Source: a virus (taxonomy: Duplodnaviria; Heunggongvirae; Uroviricota; Caudoviricetes). Taken from it: a stretch of 15,944 nt of DNA. Below are positions 1-15,295 of this stretch, piece by piece. The position numbers were made by a program, and so were the translations under genes. Location: IMG/VR virus record IMGVR_UViG_2713897073_000008. One strand, written 5' to 3'. Within the stretch, counting starts at the first letter, position 1; the number at the start of each line of letters is the position of its first letter. The notes under the pieces were generated by a model. It had not been told where the DNA came from. It did not search any database and worked only from the letters and a program-made list of their open reading frames with translations.

Positions 1-267
1 TTACTCTGCAGGTGAAGTCGGCCACTCAATATCAGGTGCGGTTGATGTATCAACACGGTTCAGCAACACCCGATACTTCTTCCAGGCTTCCAGCAACGAG
101 TTTTCTTCCTCCGTTGCGATCTCCAGATCTACAGCATCCTGAAGTGGCGCAATATGCTCACTGAATTCCTGGATGTAGAACTGTGTGGTGACGGTCTTCC
201 AGCCATTCGGCTCCTGCTGTATCGAAGCATACCAGGCTATTTCAATATCGCTATGCTGCGGCAGCAT
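1..267 (-). CDS. tfa: Tail fiber assembly protein (Tfa), short 88 aa form retaining the conserved C-terminal domain
   Basis: C-terminal ~45 aa ([48 protein letters not shown]) match the conserved C-terminus of lambda-type Tfa as I recall it. The protein is about half the usual Tfa length, so the N-terminal part is replaced or truncated. TAA stop at 1-3. Confidence 0.65.
20..71. repeat. 52-bp conserved core of the tfa 3' end, direct-repeat copy 1 (2 mismatches to 1069..1120)
   Basis: ggccactcaatatcaggtgcGgttgatgtaTcaacacggttcagcaacaccc here versus the same string with A and C at the two capitalised positions at 1069-1120. Flanking sequence is related but more diverged. Confidence 0.8.
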
Positions 268-323
268 TTAACCCCTTGTAATTCATCGCCACAATTGATT
301 TAATTCACAAATAAAACTATAAC

Positions 324-992
324 ATGGTGAAATTAATGAAAAAAAACACAGATGATGGGGCTAAAATTTACACACCACTTACCCTAAAGCTTTATGACTG
401 GTGGGTTTTGGGAGTATCAAATCGGCTTGCATGGGGATGTCCTACAAAGGAACACCTTCTTCCACACTTTCTGGAACATTTAGGTAACAACCATCTGGAT
501 ATTGGTGTTGGAACTGGGTTTTACCTTACTCACGTACCTGAGAGTAGTCTGATATCTTTAATGGATTTGAACGAAGCTAGCCTGAACGCGGCATCGACAA
601 GGGCTGGGGAATCAAAAATTAAACATAAAATTAGCCATGATGTTTTTGAACCTTATCCCGCGGCATTACATGGTCAATTTGATTCCATTTCCATGTTTTA
701 CCTTCTTCACTGCCTGCCTGGAAATATATCTACAAAAAGCTGTGTAATACGCAATGCGGCGCAGGCCTTAACTGACGATGGAACTCTATACGGAGCCACA
801 ATTCTTGGTGACGGCGTTGTGCACAATAGCTTCGGTCAAAAACTGATGCGCATTTACAATCAAAAAGGCATCTTTTCAAACACAAAAGATTCCGAAGAAG
901 GCTTAACACATATACTCTCAGAGCATTTCGAGAATGTTAAAACCAAGATTAAAGGTACTGTAGTAATGTTTTCCGCTTCAGGGAAAAAATAG
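324..992 (+). CDS. Class I SAM-dependent methyltransferase (222 aa); alternative start at 336 has the better SD
   Basis: Glycine-rich motif I (HLDIGVGTGFYL) typical of Rossmann-fold SAM methyltransferases. Visibly AT-rich gene on the opposite strand to the flanking tfa sequences. TGGTGA 5 nt upstream of ATG 336. Confidence 0.6.
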   Translation: MVKLMKKNTDDGAKIYTPLTLKLYDWWVLGVSNRLAWGCPTKEHLLPHFLEHLGNNHLDIGVGTGFYLTHVPESSLISLMDLNEASLNAASTRAGESKIKHKISHDVFEPYPAALHGQFDSISMFYLLHCLPGNISTKSCVIRNAAQALTDDGTLYGATILGDGVVHNSFGQKLMRIYNQKGIFSNTKDSEEGLTHILSEHFENVKTKIKGTVVMFSASGKK

Positions 993-1046
993 CATCCAGC
1001 CGCAGCACGTTCTTGCGCACGACGTGCTGCGGCATAATCTCAATGA

Positions 1047-1163
1047 TTACTCCCTGACAGGGTTCGTAGGCCACTCAATATCAGGTGCAGTTGATGTACC
1101 AACACGGTTCAGCAACACCCTGCATGCCTTCCATGCCGCCAGCAATGATGTTTCCTCCTTCGT
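1047..1163 (-). pseudogene. tfa 3' fragment (about 38 codons of Tfa C-terminus, no start codon, in-frame stop immediately upstream)
   Basis: Minus-strand translation gives [39 protein letters not shown], homologous to the C-terminus of the 1..267 Tfa; homology ends abruptly at about 1163, preceded by TGA in frame. Confidence 0.6.
1069..1120. repeat. 52-bp conserved core of the tfa 3' end, direct-repeat copy 2
   Basis: See copy 1 at 20..71; same orientation, 50/52 identical by eye. Confidence 0.8.
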
Positions 1164-1439
1164 TGCATATACTGCTCACCTTTTTCACCCACGATTAACC
1201 AACAGCCAGATTCGCAGGCACGCCCCACCACGGCATATTCATACGCTTGCCATGTCCGAACATTTCAATCCAGCGATATTATGCCTGGGGTGTTCAAGCG
1301 CAATGAAGTACGTATTGTATCTTCGCGATTTTTTATAGGCTAATTGACGCGCAATTCTGAGCGGGGAGCGCACAATCAAACAGCACAGAATGGATCGCTG
1401 ATATTTATCCTTTTGTCGGTTTATCAAACAACAAGAGAG

Positions 1440-2654
1440 TCAATAGCGGATTGTCCCTACATCCATTTCTGGCGAATCCACTAACCAGAAATTATCTGGC
1501 TTTACAGCCAGAATGATCCAGGCAGTGTTTGTTGTTGATGACCAGGAAGGCAGCACATCGTATGCCGGGTCATCGCAAGAATCACGATAACCGTACTCAT
1601 TAAAAAGTGGAGCCATTGCTGCCACAAGATTCACCGCATTCAGCTCATTACCCAGCTTGCGCTCAAAAAGTGCCACACCTGCCGTTCCTTCCACCCACAC
1701 GCCACGGCTGTGACCACTATAACCATAATCAGGGTGGTACGGTGTGTAACCCGTGGTTTCCCTCGTACCAAATAAAAAACGCCCCATATATTTTCGGCAC
1801 TTAGCCGCTTTCTCAGCATCAATATTGGCAACAAACAATCCGCCCCAGGAAGACTGATCCAGCGCCGCTGCGTTGTCATAGTGGGTTGAATGAACCCCCT
1901 GTCGAAATCGGCCTTCATCTTCCACCCACAGACCTCTGATGATGCTCTTTGCCAGCCTGTCAGCCCGCTCACTGAAACCGTCAAATCCCAGCCGTCCCAT
2001 CAGTTCAAACAAAAACCAGATATCAACGTTATGCTCCAGTGCGCACCATTCGGCGACAAAAGTTTCATCAAAATTGCCGTCCACATAACGCCCCTGCCCC
2101 CCTTTATACAGGCCTTCACGCAGGTCGCCTGGTGTGCTCACCAGAAAAGTATCCAGCCAGGCAATGCCTGCCAATAGCTTTTCTCTGACCCGCGCAGTCT
2201 GAGTACCGTCCGGATACTTCTCCAGATAGAAAGCAAGAGCATAATAAACCCATGCCGCATTGCCCAAGCGGTAATAGGTACGCGGTGACATGGCAGACAG
2301 CCTGTTAACAAAAAACTTTACTCCACCGTTTTCATCAACAAGCGCACACAAGCCCGCAACGTATCTTTCTACAGCCTCATGTCGCTGAACCATCAACGCC
2401 AGTGCTGCCAGCGCCTGGTCATACGTGTAACACCGATCTTTCATCACCCTGATCACTTCGGGGTCTGCGTCCTCCGGCATCCAGTAGCTACGAATGAGCA
2501 GTGGAAACTCCAGCGTTGTGATCCACGCATTATCCTCAATCCGAATAAGACGAAACTGTTTTGCTCCCGTCCAGCAACGTCTGAAATAGAAAGTTCCGTC
2601 ACTATTCAAATTAGCGTCGCCGTTAAAATACTCTCCGGTTGTATAAGCATACAT
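1440..2654 (-). CDS. Hypothetical protein (404 aa), function unknown; may be a frameshifted continuation of the upstream portal-like ORF
   Basis: Long uninterrupted ORF with ordinary-looking codon usage and several antisense shadow ORFs. Its 5' end overlaps the 3' end of the portal-like ORF by about 49 bp in another frame. No motif I can name with confidence. Confidence 0.45.
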   Translation of the reverse strand: MYAYTTGEYFNGDANLNSDGTFYFRRCWTGAKQFRLIRIEDNAWITTLEFPLLIRSYWMPEDADPEVIRVMKDRCYTYDQALAALALMVQRHEAVERYVAGLCALVDENGGVKFFVNRLSAMSPRTYYRLGNAAWVYYALAFYLEKYPDGTQTARVREKLLAGIAWLDTFLVSTPGDLREGLYKGGQGRYVDGNFDETFVAEWCALEHNVDIWFLFELMGRLGFDGFSERADRLAKSIIRGLWVEDEGRFRQGVHSTHYDNAAALDQSSWGGLFVANIDAEKAAKCRKYMGRFLFGTRETTGYTPYHPDYGYSGHSRGVWVEGTAGVALFERKLGNELNAVNLVAAMAPLFNEYGYRDSCDDPAYDVLPSWSSTTNTAWIILAVKPDNFWLVDSPEMDVGTIRY

Positions 2655-3235
2655 ATCGACTTTATACTTTTCAGGTTCAGCCTGTTGCTCTCATCACTGG
2701 TCATGGGAATAAAGTCCGGCTCGAGCGCCTCCAGCCAGAAATGAACACCGGCAGAAGGCGTCAGGCTGTTTATGCGCCCGGAAACCATCTGGGCAAACAC
2801 CTCACCATCGCGCAGCCAGGTACGCAGCATCAGACGTTCCAGCATCGGACGGGTAAACTGCCCGGTGACCTCCGGACTGACAGACCATTCACTCCATCGG
2901 GTGCGTATCTCCGCTGCCAGATCACGGGCAATGGCCCCATTGCGTAATACCGGATGTGGCTCGACAATAATCCCGTTTTTCCCCACCACCCGTTCTTCCA
3001 GCTTGTCAAATACACCAATGACCAGATCGTGGTTGTTATCAAGGTAACGGGCCTGCTCACGTAACGACACGGCCCCGTACTGGCTTAACTGATCGGCAGT
3101 TCGGTTCTCCCGTCGGGCTTTGTGTGTCCGCGTCGTTTTTACGGCCTCATAAGCCTGGATCACCGCACGGGAACGCAGCCTTGCCGCTTTCCATCCTGGT
3201 GAAAAAACGCCAATCACATCATCAAGAATTGCCAT
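2606..3235 (-). CDS. Phage portal protein-like, N-terminal region only (209 aa); apparently truncated or frameshifted
   Basis: Arg-rich N-terminus followed by SLREQARYLDNNHDLVIGVFDKLEERVVGKNGI, resembling the conserved N-terminal motif of lambda-family portal proteins as I recall it. The ORF is far too short for a portal (~500+ aa). Start overlaps the end of the upstream ORF, as is typical of phage head genes. Confidence 0.4.
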   Translation of the reverse strand: MAILDDVIGVFSPGWKAARLRSRAVIQAYEAVKTTRTHKARRENRTADQLSQYGAVSLREQARYLDNNHDLVIGVFDKLEERVVGKNGIIVEPHPVLRNGAIARDLAAEIRTRWSEWSVSPEVTGQFTRPMLERLMLRTWLRDGEVFAQMVSGRINSLTPSAGVHFWLEALEPDFIPMTSDESNRLNLKSIKSICMLIQPESILTATLI

Positions 3236-3557
3236 CAGAACCTCGCCAGCCGGTAATCGAGTTATCAGAACTGTTAATTTTTATGGTATACCGCGCCTCT
3301 GAACAGGGGCGCGTTTCTGGCAACAGCTCGTCCCCTTCACATAACCCGGCAGCAACATCCAGGAAGACCTGTCTGATGCTCCTTCTGGCTGCTGCCTCAT
3401 AAAACTCCAGCGCTGCACCTTCAACACGGTCCAGCGAGATGTCCAGGTCAAAAATTTCACCGTCAAAGCGTTTTTTGTCCCGTAACGCTAAAGTTACCGT
3501 AACTTTATTCTCAAAATTGCGGATCCCTTTCACAATCAGTTCATAGTTTTGAGTCAT
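3222..3557 (-). CDS. Hypothetical phage protein (111 aa), immediately downstream of holin and overlapping the portal-like ORF start
   Basis: ATG at 3557 sits 4 nt after the holin stop with GGAGAG about 10 nt upstream. It occupies the position where endolysin or terminase/head-completion genes would be expected but has no lysozyme-like motif. Confidence 0.5.
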   Translation of the reverse strand: MTQNYELIVKGIRNFENKVTVTLALRDKKRFDGEIFDLDISLDRVEGAALEFYEAAARRSIRQVFLDVAAGLCEGDELLPETRPCSEARYTIKINSSDNSITGWRGSDGNS

Positions 3558-3561
3558 TGAA

Positions 3562-3777
3562 TTACTCTCCCCGTGCAGCCTTACGCTTGTCTTCTCTGAT
3601 TTTGAAGTACAGATTTGTCAGATAAGTCAGGAAGCCCAGAACCAGACTCCCCAGTACACCAATCGCAGCCCACTGTGACGGACTGACCTGATCAAGCCAC
3701 TGTAAAAACCAGTAGCCAGCACTGCCTGCGGAGGTGCCATAGGCAATGCCCGTTGAAATTTTGTCCATGGATTTCAT
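3562..3777 (-). CDS. Pinholin, phage 21 S21 family (71 aa; dual-start motif M1-K-S-M4)
   Basis: [71 protein letters not shown]: two hydrophobic segments (first Gly/Ala/Ser-rich, SAR-like), charged C-terminus, Met1/Met4 dual start as in S21-71/S21-68. Closely matches my recollection of the S21 pinholin. Confidence 0.8.
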
Positions 3778-3835
3778 AGCCTCACCTCCGCAAATAACGG
3801 ATGGCGTAGTTTTACACTGAGAAATGAAAGGGATT

Positions 3836-3862
3836 TGAAAAGAAAAGCCCGCAAAAGCGGGC
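3836..3862 (-). terminator. Putative intrinsic terminator (minus-strand sense): GCCCGC-AAAA-GCGGGC hairpin followed by U-rich tract
   Basis: Plus strand gaaaagaaaaGCCCGCaaaaGCGGGC; on the minus strand the 6-bp GC stem is followed by UUUUCUUUUC. Lies between the tRNA cluster and the holin. Confidence 0.35.
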
Positions 3863-3937
3863 GAAACAATATATACAGTAAGGAAAGCACTCTATCCAAC
3901 AAACCACCCACAGTTAATCGGAATAAAAGCAGAGTGC

Positions 3938-4010
3938 TTATGAATGATCGCCTGCCCGAAGGTTAGTATTTCTGCACAGCAATTTTGCAAAAAAAGGCGA
4001 TCATTCATAA
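3938..4010. repeat. Perfect 15-bp inverted repeat (TTATGAATGATCGCC / GGCGATCATTCATAA) separated by 43 bp
   Basis: Arms at 3938-3952 and 3996-4010 are exact reverse complements. Non-coding region between the tRNAs and the holin. Confidence 0.7.
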
Positions 4011-4069
4011 CTTAAACGTCCTTCAGTCACTCCGGGATTTCCCATCATCGCAGACTGAAAGACTCTGAC

Positions 4070-4144
<75 letters not shown>

Positions 4145-4147
4145 ATA

Positions 4148-4223
<76 letters not shown>

Positions 4224-4225
4224 AC

Positions 4226-4302
4226 TGGACCGCCACCGGGGACTCGAACCTCGCACACTCAACTTAAAGAGTTGACGCTCTTTCCTGATGAGCTAGTGGC
4301 GG
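4226..4302 (-). tRNA. Atypical tRNA-like gene; canonical fold gives anticodon UUU (Lys) with non-canonical C33 (a register shift would give UCU, Arg)
   Basis: Reverse complement CCGCCAC-UA-GCUC-AUCAGGAAA-GAGC-G-UCAAC-UCUUUAA-GUUGA-GUGUG-CGAGG-UUCGAGU-CCCCG-GUGGCGG-U-CCA: 7-bp acceptor stem (C1-G72), 4-bp D-stem with GG in D-loop, 5-bp anticodon stem, T-stem with one A/C mismatch, CCA encoded. Only 2 nt and 1 nt from the neighbouring tRNAs. Confidence 0.55.
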
Positions 4303-4303
4303 T

Positions 4304-4379
4304 TGGTGGCCCTTGCTGGATTTGAACCAGCGACCTGGCGATTATGAGTCGCTCGCTCTCACCACTGAGCTAAAGGGCC
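4304..4379 (-). tRNA. tRNA with anticodon CAU, most like tRNA-Ile2 (lysidine-modified, AUA-decoding; ileX/ileZ type) rather than elongator Met
   Basis: Reverse complement GGCCCUUUAGCUCAGUGGUGAGAGCGAGCGACUCAUAAUCGCCAGGUCGCUGGUUCAAAUCCAGCAAGGGCCACCA; very similar to E. coli ileX as I recall it. Anticodon loop CUCAUAA. Confidence 0.8.
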
Positions 4380-4388
4380 GGGCGCAGG

Positions 4389-4417
4389 ATAATAACGTTA
4401 CGAAATCAATGTTGCAA
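4389..4417 (-). promoter_or_regulatory. Putative sigma70 promoter for the tRNA cluster (-35 TTGCAA, 17-bp spacer, -10 TATTAT), ending about 9 nt upstream of tRNA-Ile 5' end
   Basis: Minus-strand reading TTGCAA(4417-4412) cattgatttcgtaacgt TATTAT(4394-4389) cctgcgccc then the tRNA 5' G. Upstream A/T-rich direct repeats AAAAATCACC x2 at about 4422-4450 could be UP-element-like. Confidence 0.3.
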
Positions 4418-4524: not shown

Positions 4525-4644
4525 AAGTTGTGTGGCGAAGCGACCACTCTTAACAGATTAAGATAGTTTTTGCGTACGCGTTAGTGATTTTTTCATAATT
4601 ATCTGTATCCTGTGGCTATTTCTCTTGCGCAAAGGATGCTTTTG

Positions 4645-5523
4645 ATGACGCAGCAACTCGAAAACATGCCAATAACAGAAATCGAAATTGCCTACGGTGG
4701 AGAGGCATACGCAGATAATCAGATCGACGCGAAAACATTAGGCGAAGCCTTAACCTCTCTTAGTGCCCTGATTGAACACGCCGAAAAAATAATTAATGGC
4801 GAAACAGCAGAGCCGAAAGTCAACATCAAGGCAACAAAAGAAGGTTCATTTACTTTGCTTGTTGCTGTGATGGGGAGCATAAAAACTATTAACGCCCTTG
4901 GCCTCGTTGCAGGTGGTGGAGTTGCCGCAGGTGGCGTACTCGGGATAATCGAATGGCTCAAAGGGCGTAAAATCAGCTCCATTGTCGTCGATGAACAAAA
5001 AGATACAGCAGAAATCGAAGTGGATGGTGAGAAGGTTAAATGCAGTAACGACATTCAAAAATTAATAACCAGTCCAATCATCCGAAAAGAACTGGATAAA
5101 TTAATCTATAAACCCCTGCAGACTGAAAAACCATCCACGTTCTCAGTTTCACAGCAGAAGCATAAGGTAGTCAGGGTGACGCAAGCTGAAGCAGTAAGTT
5201 TTAAAACTGCAAAATCCACCTTTGTCGAGAAAACGCACGTAACGACACGCCAAGCTAATGTACATTTTGCTAATGTTCGATTCAAGCAAGGCAAAAGCTG
5301 GGATATCATCCTGCCAAATGGCGAAGAAGTTAGCGCATCTATGAAAGATGAGGCTTTTCTTGAACGGGTTGAACACAACCAAGCAGCATTCTGTAAGGGT
5401 GATCTTTTTGTTGTAGAACTGACAGAAACAACAAAAGAAACAAATGGCGCGCTGTCTAAACCACGCTATAGTATTACTAAGGTTATACGCCACAGAGCGG
5501 CGGCAGATAGGAAACTACTTTAA
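4645..5523 (+). CDS. Hypothetical protein (292 aa from ATG 4645; ORF open from GTG 4612) with central glycine-zipper hydrophobic segment; first gene of AT-rich three-gene operon
   Basis: AAGGA SD 9 nt upstream of ATG 4645. Central FTLLVAVMGSIKTINALGLVAGGGVAAGGVLGIIEWL (GxxxG-rich) flanked by charged, K/T/E-rich soluble regions. Antisense frames carry only short shadow ORFs. No recognisable catalytic motif. Confidence 0.6.
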   Translation: MTQQLENMPITEIEIAYGGEAYADNQIDAKTLGEALTSLSALIEHAEKIINGETAEPKVNIKATKEGSFTLLVAVMGSIKTINALGLVAGGGVAAGGVLGIIEWLKGRKISSIVVDEQKDTAEIEVDGEKVKCSNDIQKLITSPIIRKELDKLIYKPLQTEKPSTFSVSQQKHKVVRVTQAEAVSFKTAKSTFVEKTHVTTRQANVHFANVRFKQGKSWDIILPNGEEVSASMKDEAFLERVEHNQAAFCKGDLFVVELTETTKETNGALSKPRYSITKVIRHRAAADRKLL

Positions 5524-8321: not shown

Positions 8322-9443
8322 CTAGTGAATTTTGCCTCTAAGAGTTCGGTAAGATTGTAGTGAAACAACATCACCACTTCCTGGCAGTTCATGAACCGCA
8401 GGAAGATCATCTCCTACTAACTCATAAAAAATGTCCACTTCTATATCCATTTCATCAGCTATACGCTGTGGGTCGTATCCTAACTCTTCAAATAAAAACG
8501 ATAAAGCCCGACGGAATAACTCAGGACGCTCATGAGGGATTAGATAATCTTCTTTTTCATCAATAGCTTCCCCTTTCCGTTTCAACCCCATAAATGCAGT
8601 TCTGTACTGCTCATCAGTCAAAAGTCCTAATTGATGAGCCCTGTAAACAATGGCAGCCTTACTTACTTTCCATGTCAACTTAAATTGGCTTAGTCCCTGC
8701 CAATTTATCCTCCCCCCCACAGGTCTTGGAAAATATTTCGCCATCGACGTTCTGGGAAGCAACAGAGCAGAGGCAAAACGGTTTGCCTGGGATTCAGTTA
8801 ATCTATCCCCAGTAGAAATTCCTTCATGAAGAATCAAATGGGCAACCTCATGAGCAATATCAAAGCGTTGCCTACAAGGTGAATTTTTAGCTGTATTTCG
8901 AACAATAAAAGGCCTTCGTAGAGGAACAGACAGTGCATCTACTTCATCCGAAACGGAGTCAAATGAAGTAACAAACGCCCCAAGTTTCTCGGCAAGGCGA
9001 GTCATATTTTCAATTGGGCCAAAGCCTAAGCCCCACTCAATACGACATTTTTCTGCCGCTCGCTCGATATCTTCTTGTGTATGGACACGAAATTCAGGAA
9101 ATCGAACAGGTGACAAATTAAGGTTATCTTCAAATACATCAATAAAACGACGATAAAACTCAGCCTTAGCGAGTGTTGATAGCTTCGTTGACATCCTTGT
9201 CGAGGCGCGTTTACGAAAATGTACAATCTCTTCATTAACAGGAGAATGTTCCTGCCCTTCGAAAAAGGCGGGCTTCACGCGCAAAACCTCGGCTAATTTA
9301 TTTATAAGCTCTGGGGATGGAGTAGCTGAACCAGACTCCAGTCGCTGTACATACTGGCGTGTTTTTTCAACCTTCTCAGCAACCTGCTCCAGAGATAGCT
9401 CGTGATACAGACGAGCAAGTCTTAAATTAGTACCGTTAAACAC
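8322..9443 (-). CDS. XRE-family HTH fused to ImmA/IrrE-type (HExxH) zinc metallopeptidase domain, 373 aa; RosmerTA RmrA-like candidate
   Basis: N-terminal HTH (LSLEQVAEKVEKTRQYVQRLESG) and central HEVAH zinc-binding motif in the context typical of the ImmA/IrrE (M78/DUF955) family. GTG start with GGGTGA upstream, 10 nt after the upstream gene stop. Confidence 0.75.
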   Translation of the reverse strand: MFNGTNLRLARLYHELSLEQVAEKVEKTRQYVQRLESGSATPSPELINKLAEVLRVKPAFFEGQEHSPVNEEIVHFRKRASTRMSTKLSTLAKAEFYRRFIDVFEDNLNLSPVRFPEFRVHTQEDIERAAEKCRIEWGLGFGPIENMTRLAEKLGAFVTSFDSVSDEVDALSVPLRRPFIVRNTAKNSPCRQRFDIAHEVAHLILHEGISTGDRLTESQANRFASALLLPRTSMAKYFPRPVGGRINWQGLSQFKLTWKVSKAAIVYRAHQLGLLTDEQYRTAFMGLKRKGEAIDEKEDYLIPHERPELFRRALSFLFEELGYDPQRIADEMDIEVDIFYELVGDDLPAVHELPGSGDVVSLQSYRTLRGKIH

Positions 9444-9453
9444 ATTTCACCCA

Positions 9454-10047
9454 CTATTTGCTATTTTGTTTCTTTTCCTTCTCAGTCTTAGACGCACTGA
9501 TAGGTTCTAGTTCGATAGGTACCGGTGCTGGAGGTACATCATCGACAGAGTTCAGCATAACAACACGGTCCGCACCATATGTCCAAGTTGACACGATCTC
9601 ACCAAACACGTTATAGCCATTAAAAATGACTCTACCACCCTCGCCTTCAAATTCAGGCTTTTCAACCACAAAGCGATGCATAGTTGGAGTAGTCTCCTCT
9701 GACTCAAAGAGTCGATCAGCATCATTTCTTTTGAAAAAACCGCGTTTCTTGGGGTTATCTGCGTCATCAGTAAAGAAACGAATAGGGACATTCCCAATTG
9801 AAAACGTAAGATCCATGCCAGGATTAAGTAGTCTTAACCAGTCATATGTCTTTCGTACGCACATTTGTAGCAACGCCTGCCGCTGACGCCCAAATGTACA
9901 ACCACCACGAGTGTAATTATCATCATAGGGCGATGACAATAACTCATGAGTAATATCCTGTATCCTGAGCAACTCCTCAGCTATAATGGTTAAACGCACC
10001 TCTGTTAACTCAGGAAAGAACTCCCAAGGGAATGGATGGTTCTGCAT
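9454..10047 (-). CDS. Hypothetical protein (197 aa from ATG 10047; ORF table extends to TTG 10095), upstream partner of the HTH-peptidase; candidate toxin/effector
   Basis: GGAG SD 9 nt upstream of ATG 10047. No TM segment and no recognisable motif. Visibly AT-rich, co-oriented and tightly linked with 8322..9443. Confidence 0.55.
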   Translation of the reverse strand: MQNHPFPWEFFPELTEVRLTIIAEELLRIQDITHELLSSPYDDNYTRGGCTFGRQRQALLQMCVRKTYDWLRLLNPGMDLTFSIGNVPIRFFTDDADNPKKRGFFKRNDADRLFESEETTPTMHRFVVEKPEFEGEGGRVIFNGYNVFGEIVSTWTYGADRVVMLNSVDDVPPAPVPIELEPISASKTEKEKKQNSK

Positions 10048-10082
10048 AGACACTTCTCCGCCTAATCCGTGCAAAAAACGAC

Positions 10083-10128
10083 TTTTGTCAACCAAGATAT
10101 TGGTGCATATTCATAATTTTGTCAACCA
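10083..10128 (-). promoter_or_regulatory. Two direct repeats of TGGTTGACAAAA (each containing a consensus -35 TTGACA) immediately upstream of the 197 aa gene; candidate promoter/operator
   Basis: Minus-strand TGGTTGACAAAA at 10128-10117 and 10094-10083, 34 bp apart, between the upstream terminator and the start codon. Confidence 0.3.
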
Positions 10129-13666: not shown

Positions 13667-14092
13667 TCAATGCACAGCCACAATATTTCCTGCAGGGCCA
13701 CCACGATTCATCTGGTTGAAACCAGCGATCGCCACTGCGACAAAATCATCAGCGTCTCTCACCAGTCGTTCCCGCGTCTCCACTAGTTCCCGAAAATACG
13801 CTGAGCTATGACTGCGCATTCGGGCCACCAGCAGAGGTGGCATTGCTTTTTCGATAGCTGGTAACAACGCCTGAATTTTTTTAACCGCATCAGGGGTGTC
13901 TTTCTCCACCCAGCGGAAAATTTTCTGAGTATTGCGAGCCAGGGCTTCCGGATGGCTGTCGTCATACAGTTCCGGGAACGTCATTCCCAGCTCGAAATAC
14001 GCTTTGGTAATTTTCGCAGCCGGTACTTTTTCGCCGTCCGGATGCGCCCAGGCATTCATCGCCATGCGGATGTGTTCATGCTTGATTTTCAT
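13667..14092 (-). CDS. YdaT-like / CII-like phage regulatory protein (141 aa)
   Basis: Second gene of the rightward operon after the Cro-like HTH, overlapping its stop (ATGA). Size and position match Rac YdaT (about 140 aa) and CII-type regulators. No alignment performed. Confidence 0.5.
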   Translation of the reverse strand: MKIKHEHIRMAMNAWAHPDGEKVPAAKITKAYFELGMTFPELYDDSHPEALARNTQKIFRWVEKDTPDAVKKIQALLPAIEKAMPPLLVARMRSHSSAYFRELVETRERLVRDADDFVAVAIAGFNQMNRGGPAGNIVAVH

Positions 14093-14343
14093 GAATCAAC
14101 TCCCATCAGCTTTTTCGTAGTAGTTTTATTCCTGCCAATAGTTAAAATTGCATCGGCAGAAAATAATCCGTTTGATGCAAGAGCGATTTTTTCAGCGTAA
14201 TTTGTTTCGCCGGTATATTCTGTGCGAGGCAATTTTCCGTTATCCATCCATTTATAGATTGCTCTTTGGCTGACACCACAAACGTCGGCCACAACAGCAA
14301 CGCGAACAGTTTTGATTACATCTTCAAGTGTTTTCTGGTTCAT
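14089..14343 (-). CDS. Cro/YdaS-like HTH DNA-binding protein (84 aa from ATG 14343; the longer ORF to 14415 is rejected)
   Basis: GAGGGTG SD immediately upstream of ATG 14343. HTH segment VADVCGVSQRAIYKWMDNGKLP. Divergent from the repressor gene across a 79-bp operator region. Confidence 0.65.
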   Translation of the reverse strand: MNQKTLEDVIKTVRVAVVADVCGVSQRAIYKWMDNGKLPRTEYTGETNYAEKIALASNGLFSADAILTIGRNKTTTKKLMGVDS

Positions 14344-14422
14344 ATCACCCTCACAATGTGAACTTTGAGTACATGCCATAACAGAACTGACAGTACATTC
14401 AAGAGCGAATATCATTGAACTT
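14344..14422. promoter_or_regulatory. Divergent promoter/operator region between Cro-like and repressor genes, with two AGTACAT heptamers 24 bp apart
   Basis: AGTACAT at 14368-14374 and 14392-14398. The repressor ATG has no SD, consistent with a leaderless PRM-type transcript. Confidence 0.4.
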
Positions 14423-14842
14423 ATGGTTCATGAAGATAAAGCGCGTAAAGAGTTCGCCAGTAGGCTTGCGCTAGCCTGTGAAAACGCTGGTTATGAACAA
14501 CATGGAAGGCAGGCAGAAATTGCCCGTCGAATGAAATTAACACCAAAAGCGGTTAGCAAATGGTTTAATGGCGAAACAATTCCTCGCCGGGAGAAATTAA
14601 GGGAATTAGCAACACTAATAGGAACAACACCAACCTATCTTTTGGGAGAGGATACAGAAGAAAGTGGACAGGTACGTTTCTATCAGGAGTTAAATCCAAG
14701 ACAAAAAATCATCATTGACCTTCTGGACGAGCTCCCTGACAGTGAGACAGATGAACTTTTAAAAACTCTTGAAGAGAAAAAACAGAAGTACAATGCAATT
14801 TACGAAGAGTTAGCACGAAAGAAAAAACAAAAAGCCTCTTAA
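14423..14842 (+). CDS. XRE-family HTH prophage repressor (cI/RacR-like, 139 aa) without a recognisable S24 peptidase domain
   Basis: N-terminal HTH (QAEIARRMKLTPKAVSKWFNGETIP), K/E-rich C-terminus. Divergent from the Cro-like gene; no obvious SD (leaderless-like). Confidence 0.7.
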   Translation: MVHEDKARKEFASRLALACENAGYEQHGRQAEIARRMKLTPKAVSKWFNGETIPRREKLRELATLIGTTPTYLLGEDTEESGQVRFYQELNPRQKIIIDLLDELPDSETDELLKTLEEKKQKYNAIYEELARKKKQKAS

Positions 14843-14917
14843 ACCAGCATAAATCCGGTAGCGCCTTCCTCCGGGTTTGTGCTTCACTTTATCCCATCTC
14901 ATTTTTTTACACACAAA

Positions 14918-14958
14918 ATGTACTAAAAGTACTTTACAACAATGAACGCAAAGTACAT
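14918..14958. promoter_or_regulatory. Operator-like cluster downstream of the repressor gene: ATGTACT (inverted), AAGTACT and AGTACAT heptamers; candidate PL/OL-type region
   Basis: aaaATGTACTaaAAGTACTttacaacaatgaacgcaAAGTACATtat; the same heptamer family as in the 14344..14422 region. Confidence 0.35.
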
Positions 14959-15139
14959 TATATGCCTACCACCCACCCCGCCCCACAGAATGCAGGGCAA
15001 TACTTCGAGTTACCAAGCAGTGGTCAGGGGTTAAGTAGCCAGCCCGAGGCGTAAGAACATGACGGCAGGGTTCAACTTTAATAACTATGCAGCAGGTTTT
15101 TGTTCCGCTACCCCGGCGTTAAGGGGAAATGAGGTCAGC

Positions 15140-15295
15140 ATGGATACTATCGATCTTGGCAACAGCGAATCTCTGGTATGTGGCGTGTTCCCCAACCAGG
15201 ACGGTACGTTCACCGCGATGACGTATACCAAAAGCAAAACGTTTAAAACCGAAAATGGTGCCCGTCGCTGGCTGGAAAGAAACTCAGGTGAGTGA
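15140..15295 (+). CDS. Small early-left operon protein (51 aa; Rac YdaF-like position)
   Basis: GAGG SD 5-8 nt upstream of ATG 15140. The longer ORF from 15059 lacks an SD. Confidence 0.5.
   Translation: MDTIDLGNSESLVCGVFPNQDGTFTAMTYTKSKTFKTENGARRWLERNSGE

Follow-up and report, generated by a model that had tools for sequence, protein, structure and literature searches.

A putative HK022-type operator array around the gene of a short repressor with a DicA-like C-terminus in a tailed-phage sequence

Introduction

The operators of coliphages HK022 and HK75 are annotated in GenBank, and HK022 CI is described in PMC8053113 to bind neighbouring operators cooperatively (citing Carlson and Little 1993) and to loop OL to OR. 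Comparable arrays are known from lambda, where three 17-bp operators lie between the divergent promoters PR and PRM with a spacing of 24 bp between OR1 and OR2, a further set of operators is located at PL, and cI is transcribed from PRM as a leaderless mRNA. Phage 933W likewise has three OR and two OL operators, with OR3 on the cI start codon; its repressor, which is reportedly non-cooperative at adjacent sites, uses residues K42 and K46 to contact the A-C that is invariant at positions 4-5 of the half-site (PMC3317979). Besides that, a class of short prophage repressors of ~135–160 aa has been described as non-cleavable (PMC3121763). Members such as DicA, RacR, PaaR2 and the Gifsy repressors GfoR/GtgR have operators on both sides of the repressor gene, and DicA, RacR and PaaR2 are accompanied by divergent cro-like and ydaT genes. 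For example, O3 of RacR overlaps the ATG of its own gene (PMC9638921), and the leaderless PaaR2 exerts control at OR as well as at OL (PMC8630535).

Here, we analyzed an immunity region in a Caudoviricetes sequence of 15,944 nucleotides (IMG/VR record IMGVR_UViG_2713897073_000008; hereafter "the window"), where the initial annotation had described recurrent AGTACAT-family heptamers on both sides of a repressor gene. RefSeq labels the repressor and the cro-like gene merely as "helix-turn-helix" proteins, repressors and operators being otherwise unannotated, and the record of phage Tritos lists no operators. A literature search for phage Tritos and for the 139-aa repressor retrieved no paper on either.

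Results

The repressor gene (14423-14842, plus strand, 139 aa, Pfam HTH_3) is flanked by a divergent cro/ydaS-ydaT operon on one side and by an early-left operon of the ydfABC/dicF/dicB or kil type on the other. Its DNA-binding domain shares 58% identity with HK022 CI over residues 4-75 (tblastn), and the two recognition helices, TPKAVSKW here and TPKAISKW in HK022 CI, are one residue apart. At the same time, the protein is homologous to DicA of Qin over its whole length and has the same architecture (29% identity over residues 30-137, E 5e-15). No Pfam match to Peptidase_S24 was obtained for the repressor, and in the alignments the protein ends in a short tail resembling that of DicA. Judged from these comparisons, the repressor is an HK022-CI-type helix-turn-helix followed by a DicA-type helical C-terminus without an S24 domain; the helical segment comprises ~55 aa, in contrast to the S24 peptidase and oligomerisation domain of HK022 CI. 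An N-terminal helix-turn-helix, a short C-terminus of helical type and the lack of an S24 domain are hallmarks of the short non-cleavable class, and the 139-aa protein combines all of them. The sequence search against solved structures returned only remote helix-turn-helix matches (P22 C2, E 0.006) and no structure match for the C-terminal domain.

The DNA-binding domain of 933W CI is 51% identical to that of the window repressor, and the contact residues K42 and K46 are both retained in the alignment; however, the 933W helix reads SSKGVSKW, its half-sites are mostly CGTAC, and 933W CI carries an S24 C-domain. RacR gives a weak match restricted to the helix-turn-helix, and the recognition helix differs between the window repressor and the DicA class. 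The gene order of the DicA locus (repressor, ydfA/B/C-like genes, dicF-dicB) and the divergent cro-like and ydaT genes of its class recur here. The surrounding phage is Rac/Qin-like, unlike HK022, whose cII is replaced here by a YdaT-family protein and whose nun and put region is absent.

The cro-like gene (14089-14343, minus strand, 84 aa) is preceded by a GAGG Shine-Dalgarno sequence upstream of its ATG at 14343, and the same start is used in the RefSeq annotation of strain EDL933. Its product is 60% identical to HK022 Cro (E 1e-33).

Next to these genes, all heptamers of the initial annotation were found again at their positions when each was rechecked in the sequence. A motif search located AGTACAT at 14368-14374, 14392-14398 and 14952-14958 on the plus strand and at 14918-14924 on the minus strand (ATGTACT on the plus strand), as well as AGTACTT/AAGTACT at 14927-14934. 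The bare count of AGTACAT is weak evidence, with four copies in the window versus 1.39 expected and at least four in 12/200 shuffles. The placement is stronger evidence, as all four copies fall into the two intergenic regions around the repressor gene, which span ~300-380 nt or ~2% of the window; from this share we calculate a chance of about 1e-7. These heptamers are half-sites of 17-bp dyads of the form ATGWACT-N3-AGTWCAT (core TGWAC-N5-GTWCA). Allowing at most one mismatch, the core has eight matches in the window versus 1.52 expected, a number reached by 0/200 shuffles, and five of the eight are located in the two regions around the repressor gene. Compared with the HK022-type core TGAAC-N5-GTWCA, the array contains five dyads with 0 or 1 mismatch and falls within this operator family. 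A weight matrix trained on related loci only, with the lineage of the window excluded, recovered exactly five sites at 15.0-22.9 bits, while the next site in the window scored 8.2 bits and the best match in shuffled sequences averaged 9.6 bits. Dyad enrichment and weight matrix thus identify the 17-bp dyad rather than the heptamer as the unit. Of the ten half-sites, five had been noticed; the third operator of the right region, which contains no AGTACAT, had been overlooked.

The right region contains three sites rather than the two initially proposed. OR1 (GTGAACTTTGAGTACAT, 14358-14374, 18.7 bits) has no mismatch to TGWAC-N5-GTWCA, adjoins cro at the same position as HK022 oR1 and covers the region of the predicted PR start. 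OR2 (CAGAACTGACAGTACAT, 14382-14398, 16.6 bits; GGAACTGATAGTACA in HK022) lies in the PR spacer and includes the PRM -35 hexamer; the loci agree in the TGAnA at its centre, whereas the centres of the other sites are not conserved. The newly recognized OR3 (TTGAACTTATGGTTCAT, 14415-14431) obtained the highest matrix score (22.9 bits) and includes the repressor ATG at 14423, and its 15-bp core (TGAACTTATGGTTCA, 14416-14430) is identical to HK022 oR3. OR1 and OR2 are 24 bp apart and OR2 and OR3 33 bp; these spacings, the position of OR3 over the cI ATG and that of pR over OR1/OR2 are common to HK022 and the window. The annotated HK75 operators likewise share the cores, the 24/33-bp and 24-bp spacings and the overlap with pR and pL. 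The five-site layout with OR3 on the start codon is shared with 933W, the 24-bp step and the divergent promoters with lambda, the overlap of the repressor's own ATG with RacR O3, and the presence of operators on both sides of the gene with the DicA class. The sequences themselves set the locus apart: the lambda operators have no sequence similarity to those of the window, and neither DicA Oc (TTGTTAGTCATAACTAACAA; PMC3441716), nor the RacR sites (WTAGGC-N3-GCCTAW; PMC9638921), nor the PaaR2 repeat (GTTTAGTAA; PMC8630535) is related to its dyads.

Two divergent promoters are predicted within the OR region. The PRM-like promoter CTGACA-17-TATCAT (14387-14415, plus strand) was detected in a promoter scan with 10/12 consensus matches, and in the OR alignment the -10 column of relatives reads TATAAT, TATGAT, TACAAT or TATAGT. 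Based on promoter geometry, transcription would start at ~14422-14423, with 7 nt between the end of the TATCAT -10 and the repressor ATG, a geometry conserved in relatives. No Shine-Dalgarno sequence precedes this ATG and no in-frame start lies upstream, leaving 14423 as the sole possible start; the repressor mRNA is predicted to be leaderless, with the start codon at the predicted transcript start as in lambda cI. In Pasteurellaceae relatives, a repressor leader with a Shine-Dalgarno sequence is present. The PR-like promoter of cro (TTGAAT-16-TATGGC, 14375-14402, minus strand; -35 at 14402-14397, -10 at 14380-14375) was placed by column alignment using the annotated HK022 pR (TTGACT-16-CATAAT) as template. 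Its -10 is preceded by TGt (extended -10); the consensus promoter scan did not detect it, and its match to the consensus is poor. Relative to lambda, the array is displaced toward the repressor gene. OR3 coincides with +1, and OR2, whose centre is at about -33 relative to the ATG (-42 for the lambda equivalent), falls on the predicted PRM -35.

The left region, about 560 bp from OR and downstream of the repressor gene, contains two sites 24 bp apart. OL2 (ATGTACTAAAAGTACTT, 14918-14934, 18.1 bits; TGTACTATTGGTACT in HK022) ends with a T that is the first base of the PL -35 hexamer, and OL1 (ATGAACGCAAAGTACAT, 14942-14958, 15.0 bits; TGAACTTTAAGTACA in HK022) lies between the PL -35 and -10. 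The PL-like promoter itself (TTTACA-17-CATTAT, 14933-14961, plus strand) was found by promoter scan; its hexamers are conserved in relatives and match those of the annotated HK022 pL exactly or almost exactly, so that HK022 and the window have in common two sites at a 24-bp distance interleaved with a TTTACA-17-CATnAT promoter. Operators at PL are also a feature of lambda, but here there are only two. PL is followed by ydfA/ydfB/ydfC-like small genes and, in phage Tritos, by dicF-dicB, and directly past OL1 there is a mosaic junction to phages of different immunity. The window lacks counterparts of two further HK022 operators, OL3, located upstream of OL2, and OFR, located downstream of cro; the weight-matrix scan of the whole sequence gave no further site above 8.2 bits. 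In relatives, extra sites do exist, 53 bp ahead of OL2 and around -331 to -344.

Ahead of OL2, right after the repressor stop codon, a plus-strand stem-loop is located at 14846-14883 (-19.2 kcal/mol, z -4.67, 0/200 shuffles as stable), and its stem is preserved in strain RM10740. It is a possible terminator between the repressor transcript and PL.

The same layout recurs in ~40 loci of Enterobacterales, Vibrionaceae, Pasteurellaceae and Pseudomonas. The heptamers, whose conservation in related immunity regions had been left to be checked, are conserved there. The OR triple is present in 42/59 loci examined, and 33 distinct OR regions share the same ungapped columns, with 1.81 bits in half-site columns versus 0.81 bits in the other columns. 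The OL pair together with PL was found in 29/36 loci; its distance to the repressor stop varies between 61 and 2419 bp, whichever genes are inserted, and the pair stays with the early-left operon. At the corresponding OL positions, upstream of a common leader, Rac carries RacR-type dyads and Qin a different sequence, and this comparison supports a natural swapping of operators along with the repressor. Altogether, 1046/5426 complete E. coli genomes contain the module, including the Rac-like prophage of O157:H7 EDL933.

Throughout these loci, the operator type tracks the repressor DNA-binding domain irrespective of the C-domain attached to it, which argues against a reading in which the dyads are recognised mainly by Cro alone or by the CII analogue YdaT. 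Cro is, to be sure, conserved with the operators in every locus examined, PaaR2 and YdaS of CP-933P both protect overlapping DNA (PMC8630535), and YdaT of Rac also binds the intergenic region (PMC11879457). However, the homologous repressors of HK022 and 933W bind such sites (PMC8053113, PMC3317979). YdaT was rejected as the heptamer binder because its known motif (TTGATT-N6-AATCAA) differs from the dyads and lies elsewhere, at 14082-14099. Sharing of the dyads with Cro is expected and compatible with control by the repressor, and we regard recognition mainly by one of the other two proteins as very unlikely.

The Pasteurellaceae loci also bear on the question of whether promoter hexamers and the N-terminal codons of the repressor (Met-Val-His/Gln), instead of operators, account for the conservation. 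OR3 indeed overlaps ATG GTT CAT, OR2 includes a -35-like hexamer, and the two OL sites overlap the PL hexamers (-35 and -10). In Pasteurellaceae, however, the dyad and the 33-bp spacing are kept even though OR3 (TGAACCGTTAGTTCA) is part of a non-coding leader there and precedes the Shine-Dalgarno sequence. In addition, the OR1 half-sites lie outside every promoter hexamer, promoters need no dyad symmetry, and the HK022 sites are annotated as repressor-binding, leaving this explanation with very little credibility.

For the left region, a stem on the minus strand (14956-14929) with a T run behind it was flagged by the terminator scan. This would fit a reading of the OL repeats as a hairpin of RNA or DNA, for instance a terminator on the minus strand, in place of operators. 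This stem is built from OL2/OL1 half-sites (AAAGTACTTT and AAAGTACATT) with G-C in 3/10 pairs, no minus-strand gene ends there, and both dyads are annotated operators in HK022. We therefore rejected it as a terminator and consider it a by-product of the operator half-sites; that the OL repeats are a hairpin and not operators is highly improbable.

Finally, a functionless chance recurrence of heptamers in AT-rich intergenic DNA, with which the non-significant bare count would agree, is refuted to near certainty by the enrichment and conservation tests, given the confinement of the copies to two short intergenic regions, the strongly enriched dyad extension, the recovery of the sites by an independent weight matrix and their conserved positions across ~40 divergent loci.

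Discussion

The homology of sites, repressor and Cro to HK022, along with the conservation, supports the initial proposal of OR-like and OL-like operators for a single repressor. In our view, the locus is very probably an HK022-type lambdoid lysis-lysogeny switch whose five dyads serve as binding sites for dimers of the 139-aa repressor and probably also for Cro. The switch as such is an ordinary lambdoid one, and the domain-swapped repressor is its sole unusual feature.

In such a switch, repressor dimers would bind the dyads via the HK022-CI-type helix-turn-helix, and the Cro homologue would probably use the same five sites. Occupancy of OR1 and OR2 on PR is expected to silence cro and ydaT as well as the replication genes, and the early-left operon of the ydfABC/dicF/dicB type would be silenced by occupancy of OL1 and OL2 on the PL -35/-10. 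At high levels, the repressor would limit its own synthesis, because OR3 covers the predicted start of its transcript and OR2 the PRM -35. A more doubtful possibility, which would be an unusual geometry of autoregulation, is that the repressor and the sigma subunit of RNA polymerase occupy opposite faces of the OR2 DNA, since the central major groove is not blocked by a helix-turn-helix dimer. By analogy with HK022, pairwise cooperativity and OR-OL looping are expected. In HK022, these are properties of a protein with an S24-type C-domain, which the window repressor does not have, and here they would need to run through the DicA-type helical C-terminal domain.

The lack of an S24 domain also makes it probable that induction proceeds by an antirepressor and not by RecA-stimulated self-cleavage. 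In the class of short repressors, induction runs via antirepressors that are often LexA-controlled. Neither a LexA box (CTGT-N8-ACAG), sought as a marker of such a locus, nor a recognisable antirepressor is present within the 15.9-kb window, and an antirepressor gene could be located beyond the 16 kb.

Across the loci compared, DNA-binding domain, operators and Cro move together, over a range that extends from Enterobacterales to Vibrio and Haemophilus, and the C-terminal domain of the repressor, which determines the mode of induction, is exchanged between loci. The assignment to the HK022 operator family leads to testable predictions on the repression of toxic early genes of the dicF/dicB and kil types and on cross-immunity with phages of HK022 immunity. 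A combination of HK022 CI specificity with a C-terminus that RecA would not cleave, present in about one fifth of complete E. coli genomes, could even allow the repressor to act in trans on any phage of HK022 immunity, conferring SOS-proof superinfection immunity and repressing co-resident, SOS-inducible HK022-type prophages. We consider this possible but rather doubtful; if true, it would represent prophage cross-talk via common operators and differently regulated repressors.

As a separate observation, an Rfam scan of the whole window gave no match in or near the operator region; its only matches were an IS009 RNA (41-244) and four tRNAs (4073-4379).

Probable dyad operators on both sides of the repressor gene

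The immunity region of the window comprises a repressor gene (14423-14842, + strand; 139 aa, HTH_3, no S24 domain) and, on the minus strand, genes for an 84-aa Cro-like protein (14343 to 14089), a YdaT-family CII analogue (14092 to 13667) and a replication protein (13601 to 12525). Downstream of the repressor gene follow small DUF1391/ydfA-like, ydfB-like and ydfC-like genes (+). Across this region, the window is 99.5% identical to Escherichia phage Tritos, in which dicF, dicB and ydfD come after the small genes, reproducing the Qin prophage gene order.

The initial annotation had noted AGTACAT-family heptamers on both sides of the repressor gene. Their positions are correct: AGTACAT lies at 14368 (+), 14392 (+), 14918 (minus; ATGTACT on +) and 14952 (+), and AGTACTT/AAGTACT at 14927-14934. 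The count of AGTACAT is unremarkable by itself (four copies versus 1.39 expected; 12/200 shuffles reach four); all four copies sit within the two intergenic stretches either side of ORF 14423-14842. Repeat finding revealed a unit larger than the heptamer, with pairs of 15-20 nt recurring at a 24-bp interval on either side of the gene, plus an additional copy at 14416-14432. The core shared by these repeats is the dyad TGWAC-N5-GTWCA, which, at up to one mismatch, matches the window eight times versus 1.52 expected (0/200 shuffles). Five of the eight matches, starting at 14359, 14383, 14416, 14919 and 14943, fall in the flanking regions of the repressor gene. As the enrichment in the window vanishes at two mismatches, these five sites form a sharply bounded set. 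With one further flanking base per side, the consensus becomes the 17-bp palindrome ATGAACT-N3-AGTTCAT, so that the heptamer is a complete half-site. The initial annotation had captured five of the ten half-sites and overlooked one whole operator. We refer to the sites between cro and the repressor gene as OR1 (14358-14374), OR2 (14382-14398) and OR3 (14415-14431), and to those downstream as OL2 (14918-14934) and OL1 (14942-14958).

Match to the operators and promoters of HK022

Over its first 80 residues, the repressor is 58% identical to HK022 CI and 51% to 933W CI. The sites were set against the repressor-binding sites and promoters that GenBank annotates for HK022 (X16093) and HK75, with all cores read in repressor orientation. 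The OR3 core is identical in HK022 and the window (TGAACTTATGGTTCA). The remaining cores, HK022 first, read TGAACTTATGGTTCA and TGAACTTTGAGTACA at OR1, GGAACTGATAGTACA and AGAACTGACAGTACA at OR2, TGAACTTTAAGTACA and TGAACGCAAAGTACA at OL1, and TGTACTATTGGTACT and TGTACTAAAAGTACT at OL2. In both phages, sites start 24 and 33 bp apart at OR and 24 bp apart at OL, and OR3 overlaps the repressor ATG. The annotated HK022 pL (TTTACA-17-CATCAT) aligns column for column with TTTACA-17-CATTAT at 14933-14961 (PL), and pR (TTGACT-16-CATAAT) with the minus-strand sequence TTGAAT-16-TATGGC (14402 to 14375; PR). The Cro proteins are 60% identical, and the recognition helix reads TPKAVSKW in the window and TPKAISKW in HK022. 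The two lysines with which the 933W repressor contacts the invariant half-site A-C, K42 and K46 (PMC3317979), are both retained here. We assign the set to the HK022 type on the strength of its operator sequences, the repressor's DNA-binding domain, Cro and the arrangement of the promoters. The window differs from HK022 in the repressor C-domain, OL3/OFR and cII.

Conservation across related loci

Conservation of the heptamers in related immunity regions had been proposed as a check, and we examined it using homologues of the DNA-binding domain drawn from metagenomes and one genome per species. The OR triple (three dyads spaced by 24 (±1) and 33 (±1) bp) is present in 42/59 loci, from Escherichia, Shigella, Salmonella, Klebsiella, Enterobacter, Kluyvera, Brenneria, Pantoea and Providencia to Photobacterium, Vibrio, Haemophilus and relatives, Pseudomonas and Salinicola. 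It is absent from the four weakest matches (Firmicutes and Ignavibacteria metagenome-assembled genomes), which served as negative controls. Among 33 distinct ungapped OR regions, half-sites carry 1.81 bits, N5 centres 1.26 and the remaining columns 0.81; in E. coli variants, substitutions are located in the N5 centres and inter-operator spacers. Unlike those of OR1, OL1 and OL2, the centre of OR2 is conserved (TGAnA); it coincides with a promoter -35, CTGAnA. The paired -10 (TATCAT in the window; TATAAT, TATGAT, TACAAT or TATAGT in relatives) ends 7 nt before the ATG.

Outside the Pasteurellaceae, the right half-site of OR3 encodes Val-His or Val-Gln, which accounts for the invariant MVH/MVQ N-terminus. 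Conservation of OR3 merely as coding sequence is ruled out, as in Pasteurellaceae OR3 keeps its 33-bp distance inside a leader, upstream of the Shine-Dalgarno sequence. In these loci (Haemophilus and relatives, L035-L044; positions about -30 to -1 relative to the repressor ATG), the OR1-OR2-OR3 array is retained, and the leader spans ~20 nt with the Shine-Dalgarno sequence AAGGTG.

The OL pair with PL hexamers at fixed offsets was found in 29/36 loci, 61-2419 bp from the repressor stop, and remains ahead of the early-left operon regardless of any genes inserted between the repressor gene and OL. In Salmonella (L003/L004, 3053-3720) this cargo is a HigB/HigA toxin-antitoxin pair, in Raoultella (L006, 3308-4750) an AAA ATPase of 480 aa. 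This position corresponds to that of rexAB in lambda.

The module is common (1046/5426 complete E. coli genomes, EDL933 among them) and unannotated. Enterobacterial-type copies under the labels Streptomyces (L021, a 1-kb contig) and Pseudooceanicola (L043, a metagenome-assembled genome) probably reflect contamination or mis-binning.

A natural operator swap at OL

We compared the sequence that follows the repressor gene with Rac and Qin of K-12 by alignment. A leader common to all three starts directly after OL1 and the PL -10. At the OL2/OL1 positions, Rac carries two RacR-type dyads, TTAGGCATAGCCTAT and TTAGGCATTACCTAT, identified by the RacR consensus (PMC9638921), and Qin unrelated sequence; phages of other immunity align to the window only from ~14958 onward. 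The dyads therefore switch together with the repressor DNA-binding domain, as expected of operators. Taken with the HK022 match and the conservation across loci, this swap argues for the initial reading of the sites as OR-like and OL-like operators of one repressor.

Phages and prophages of other immunity types (Rac, Evi and others) share, at 92-98% identity, the leader that separates PL from the ydfA-like gene (14958-15140, ~170 nt). This stretch lacks both an annotation and an Rfam match; it could have a conserved regulatory role, e.g. in termination/antitermination control of a dicBF-type operon.

A chimeric repressor

By sequence, the repressor is a chimera of an HK022-CI-type DNA-binding domain and a DicA-like tail. 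Most loci pair this DNA-binding domain with an S24 peptidase domain (GDSM motif in about two-thirds of the loci examined); in the window lineage and a Salmonella lineage its partner is instead a ~55-aa helical tail. The tail shows homology to DicA (29% identity over residues 30-137, E 5e-15), and the match to RacR is confined to the helix-turn-helix. The operators of DicA (PMC3441716), RacR (PMC9638921) and PaaR2 (PMC8630535) are all unlike those in the window. The phage that carries the module is Rac/Qin-like, with a repressor in the DicA class by C-terminus and context. In Gifsy prophages, short non-cleavable repressors are inactivated by LexA-controlled antirepressors, and the authors' class includes DicA and RacR (PMC3121763). 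No LexA box was found within the window.

Promoters and proposed switch

In the proposed switch, repressor dimers at OR1, over the predicted start, and OR2, filling the spacer, would block PR, and dimers at OL1 and OL2 would block PL. The predicted repressor promoter PRM would be limited by OR3, on its transcript start, and by OR2, on its -35. According to PMC8053113, which cites Carlson and Little (1993), HK022 CI shows cooperative binding at neighbouring operators and forms OL-OR loops in vivo. The 24-bp spacing and the ~560-bp OR-OL distance could permit similar cooperativity and looping, provided that the DicA-type tail can oligomerise; for PaaR2, octamers have been reported (PMC8630535). 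Two points call for caution over the mechanism: PR is a poor consensus match, and the operator array is displaced relative to that of lambda, so that the repressor could either activate or only repress its own promoter.

Based on promoter geometry, the lack of a Shine-Dalgarno sequence and the lack of an upstream in-frame start, the repressor message is predicted to be leaderless, as demonstrated for PaaR2 (PMC8630535). Given the Shine-Dalgarno leader in Pasteurellaceae, this arrangement is not universal in the repressor family. A hairpin at 14846-14883 (-19.2 kcal/mol, z -4.67) may terminate the repressor transcript ahead of PL.

The predicted PR -10 of the window carries C at 14377, a position at which Tritos, a Shigella locus (L012), phage 666R9 and EDL933 have T. 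The minus-strand -10 thus reads TATGGC instead of TATAGC (TATATT in strain RM10740), the weakest of its lineage. The cro start codon (ATG, 14343) is served by a GAGG Shine-Dalgarno sequence and agrees with the HK022 Cro start; RefSeq uses the same start in EDL933. The 108-aa cro annotated in Tritos (TRITO_34) would cross the operators and, like the gene calls P0015, P0021 and P0025, begins too far upstream, which looks like start-codon mis-annotation. The extra length of some database repressor ORFs stems from an ATG complementary to the PR -10.

Positions 14082-14099 form a perfect YdaT box, TTGATTTTCATGAATCAA (TTGATT-N6-AATCAA). Its spacer contains the ydaT start codon, exactly as in Rac, and its sequence fits the CP-933P consensus (PMC11879457, PMC9986795). 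This suggests that YdaT activates repressor synthesis in a lambda-PRE-like circuit.

Other features of the window

A RosmerTA anti-phage defence pair occupies 8322-10095 (-), comprising RmrT (9454-10095, -, E 7e-92) and RmrA (8322-9443, -, E 4e-201), the latter combining a helix-turn-helix with an M78 peptidase; the corresponding site in Tritos has another allele of the pair. In PADLOC, ORF 4612-5523 (+) hits PDC-S42, a candidate defence family (E 3e-53); Pfam gives no match for it. The left part (1-4400) has a gene layout unlike that of Tritos, which suggests that it is rearranged or a different mosaic. Located here are an IS009 RNA match (41-244, -), a methyltransferase gene (324-992), an apparent truncated lambda-type portal fragment (2606-3235, -) and four tandem tRNA genes (4073-4379, -).
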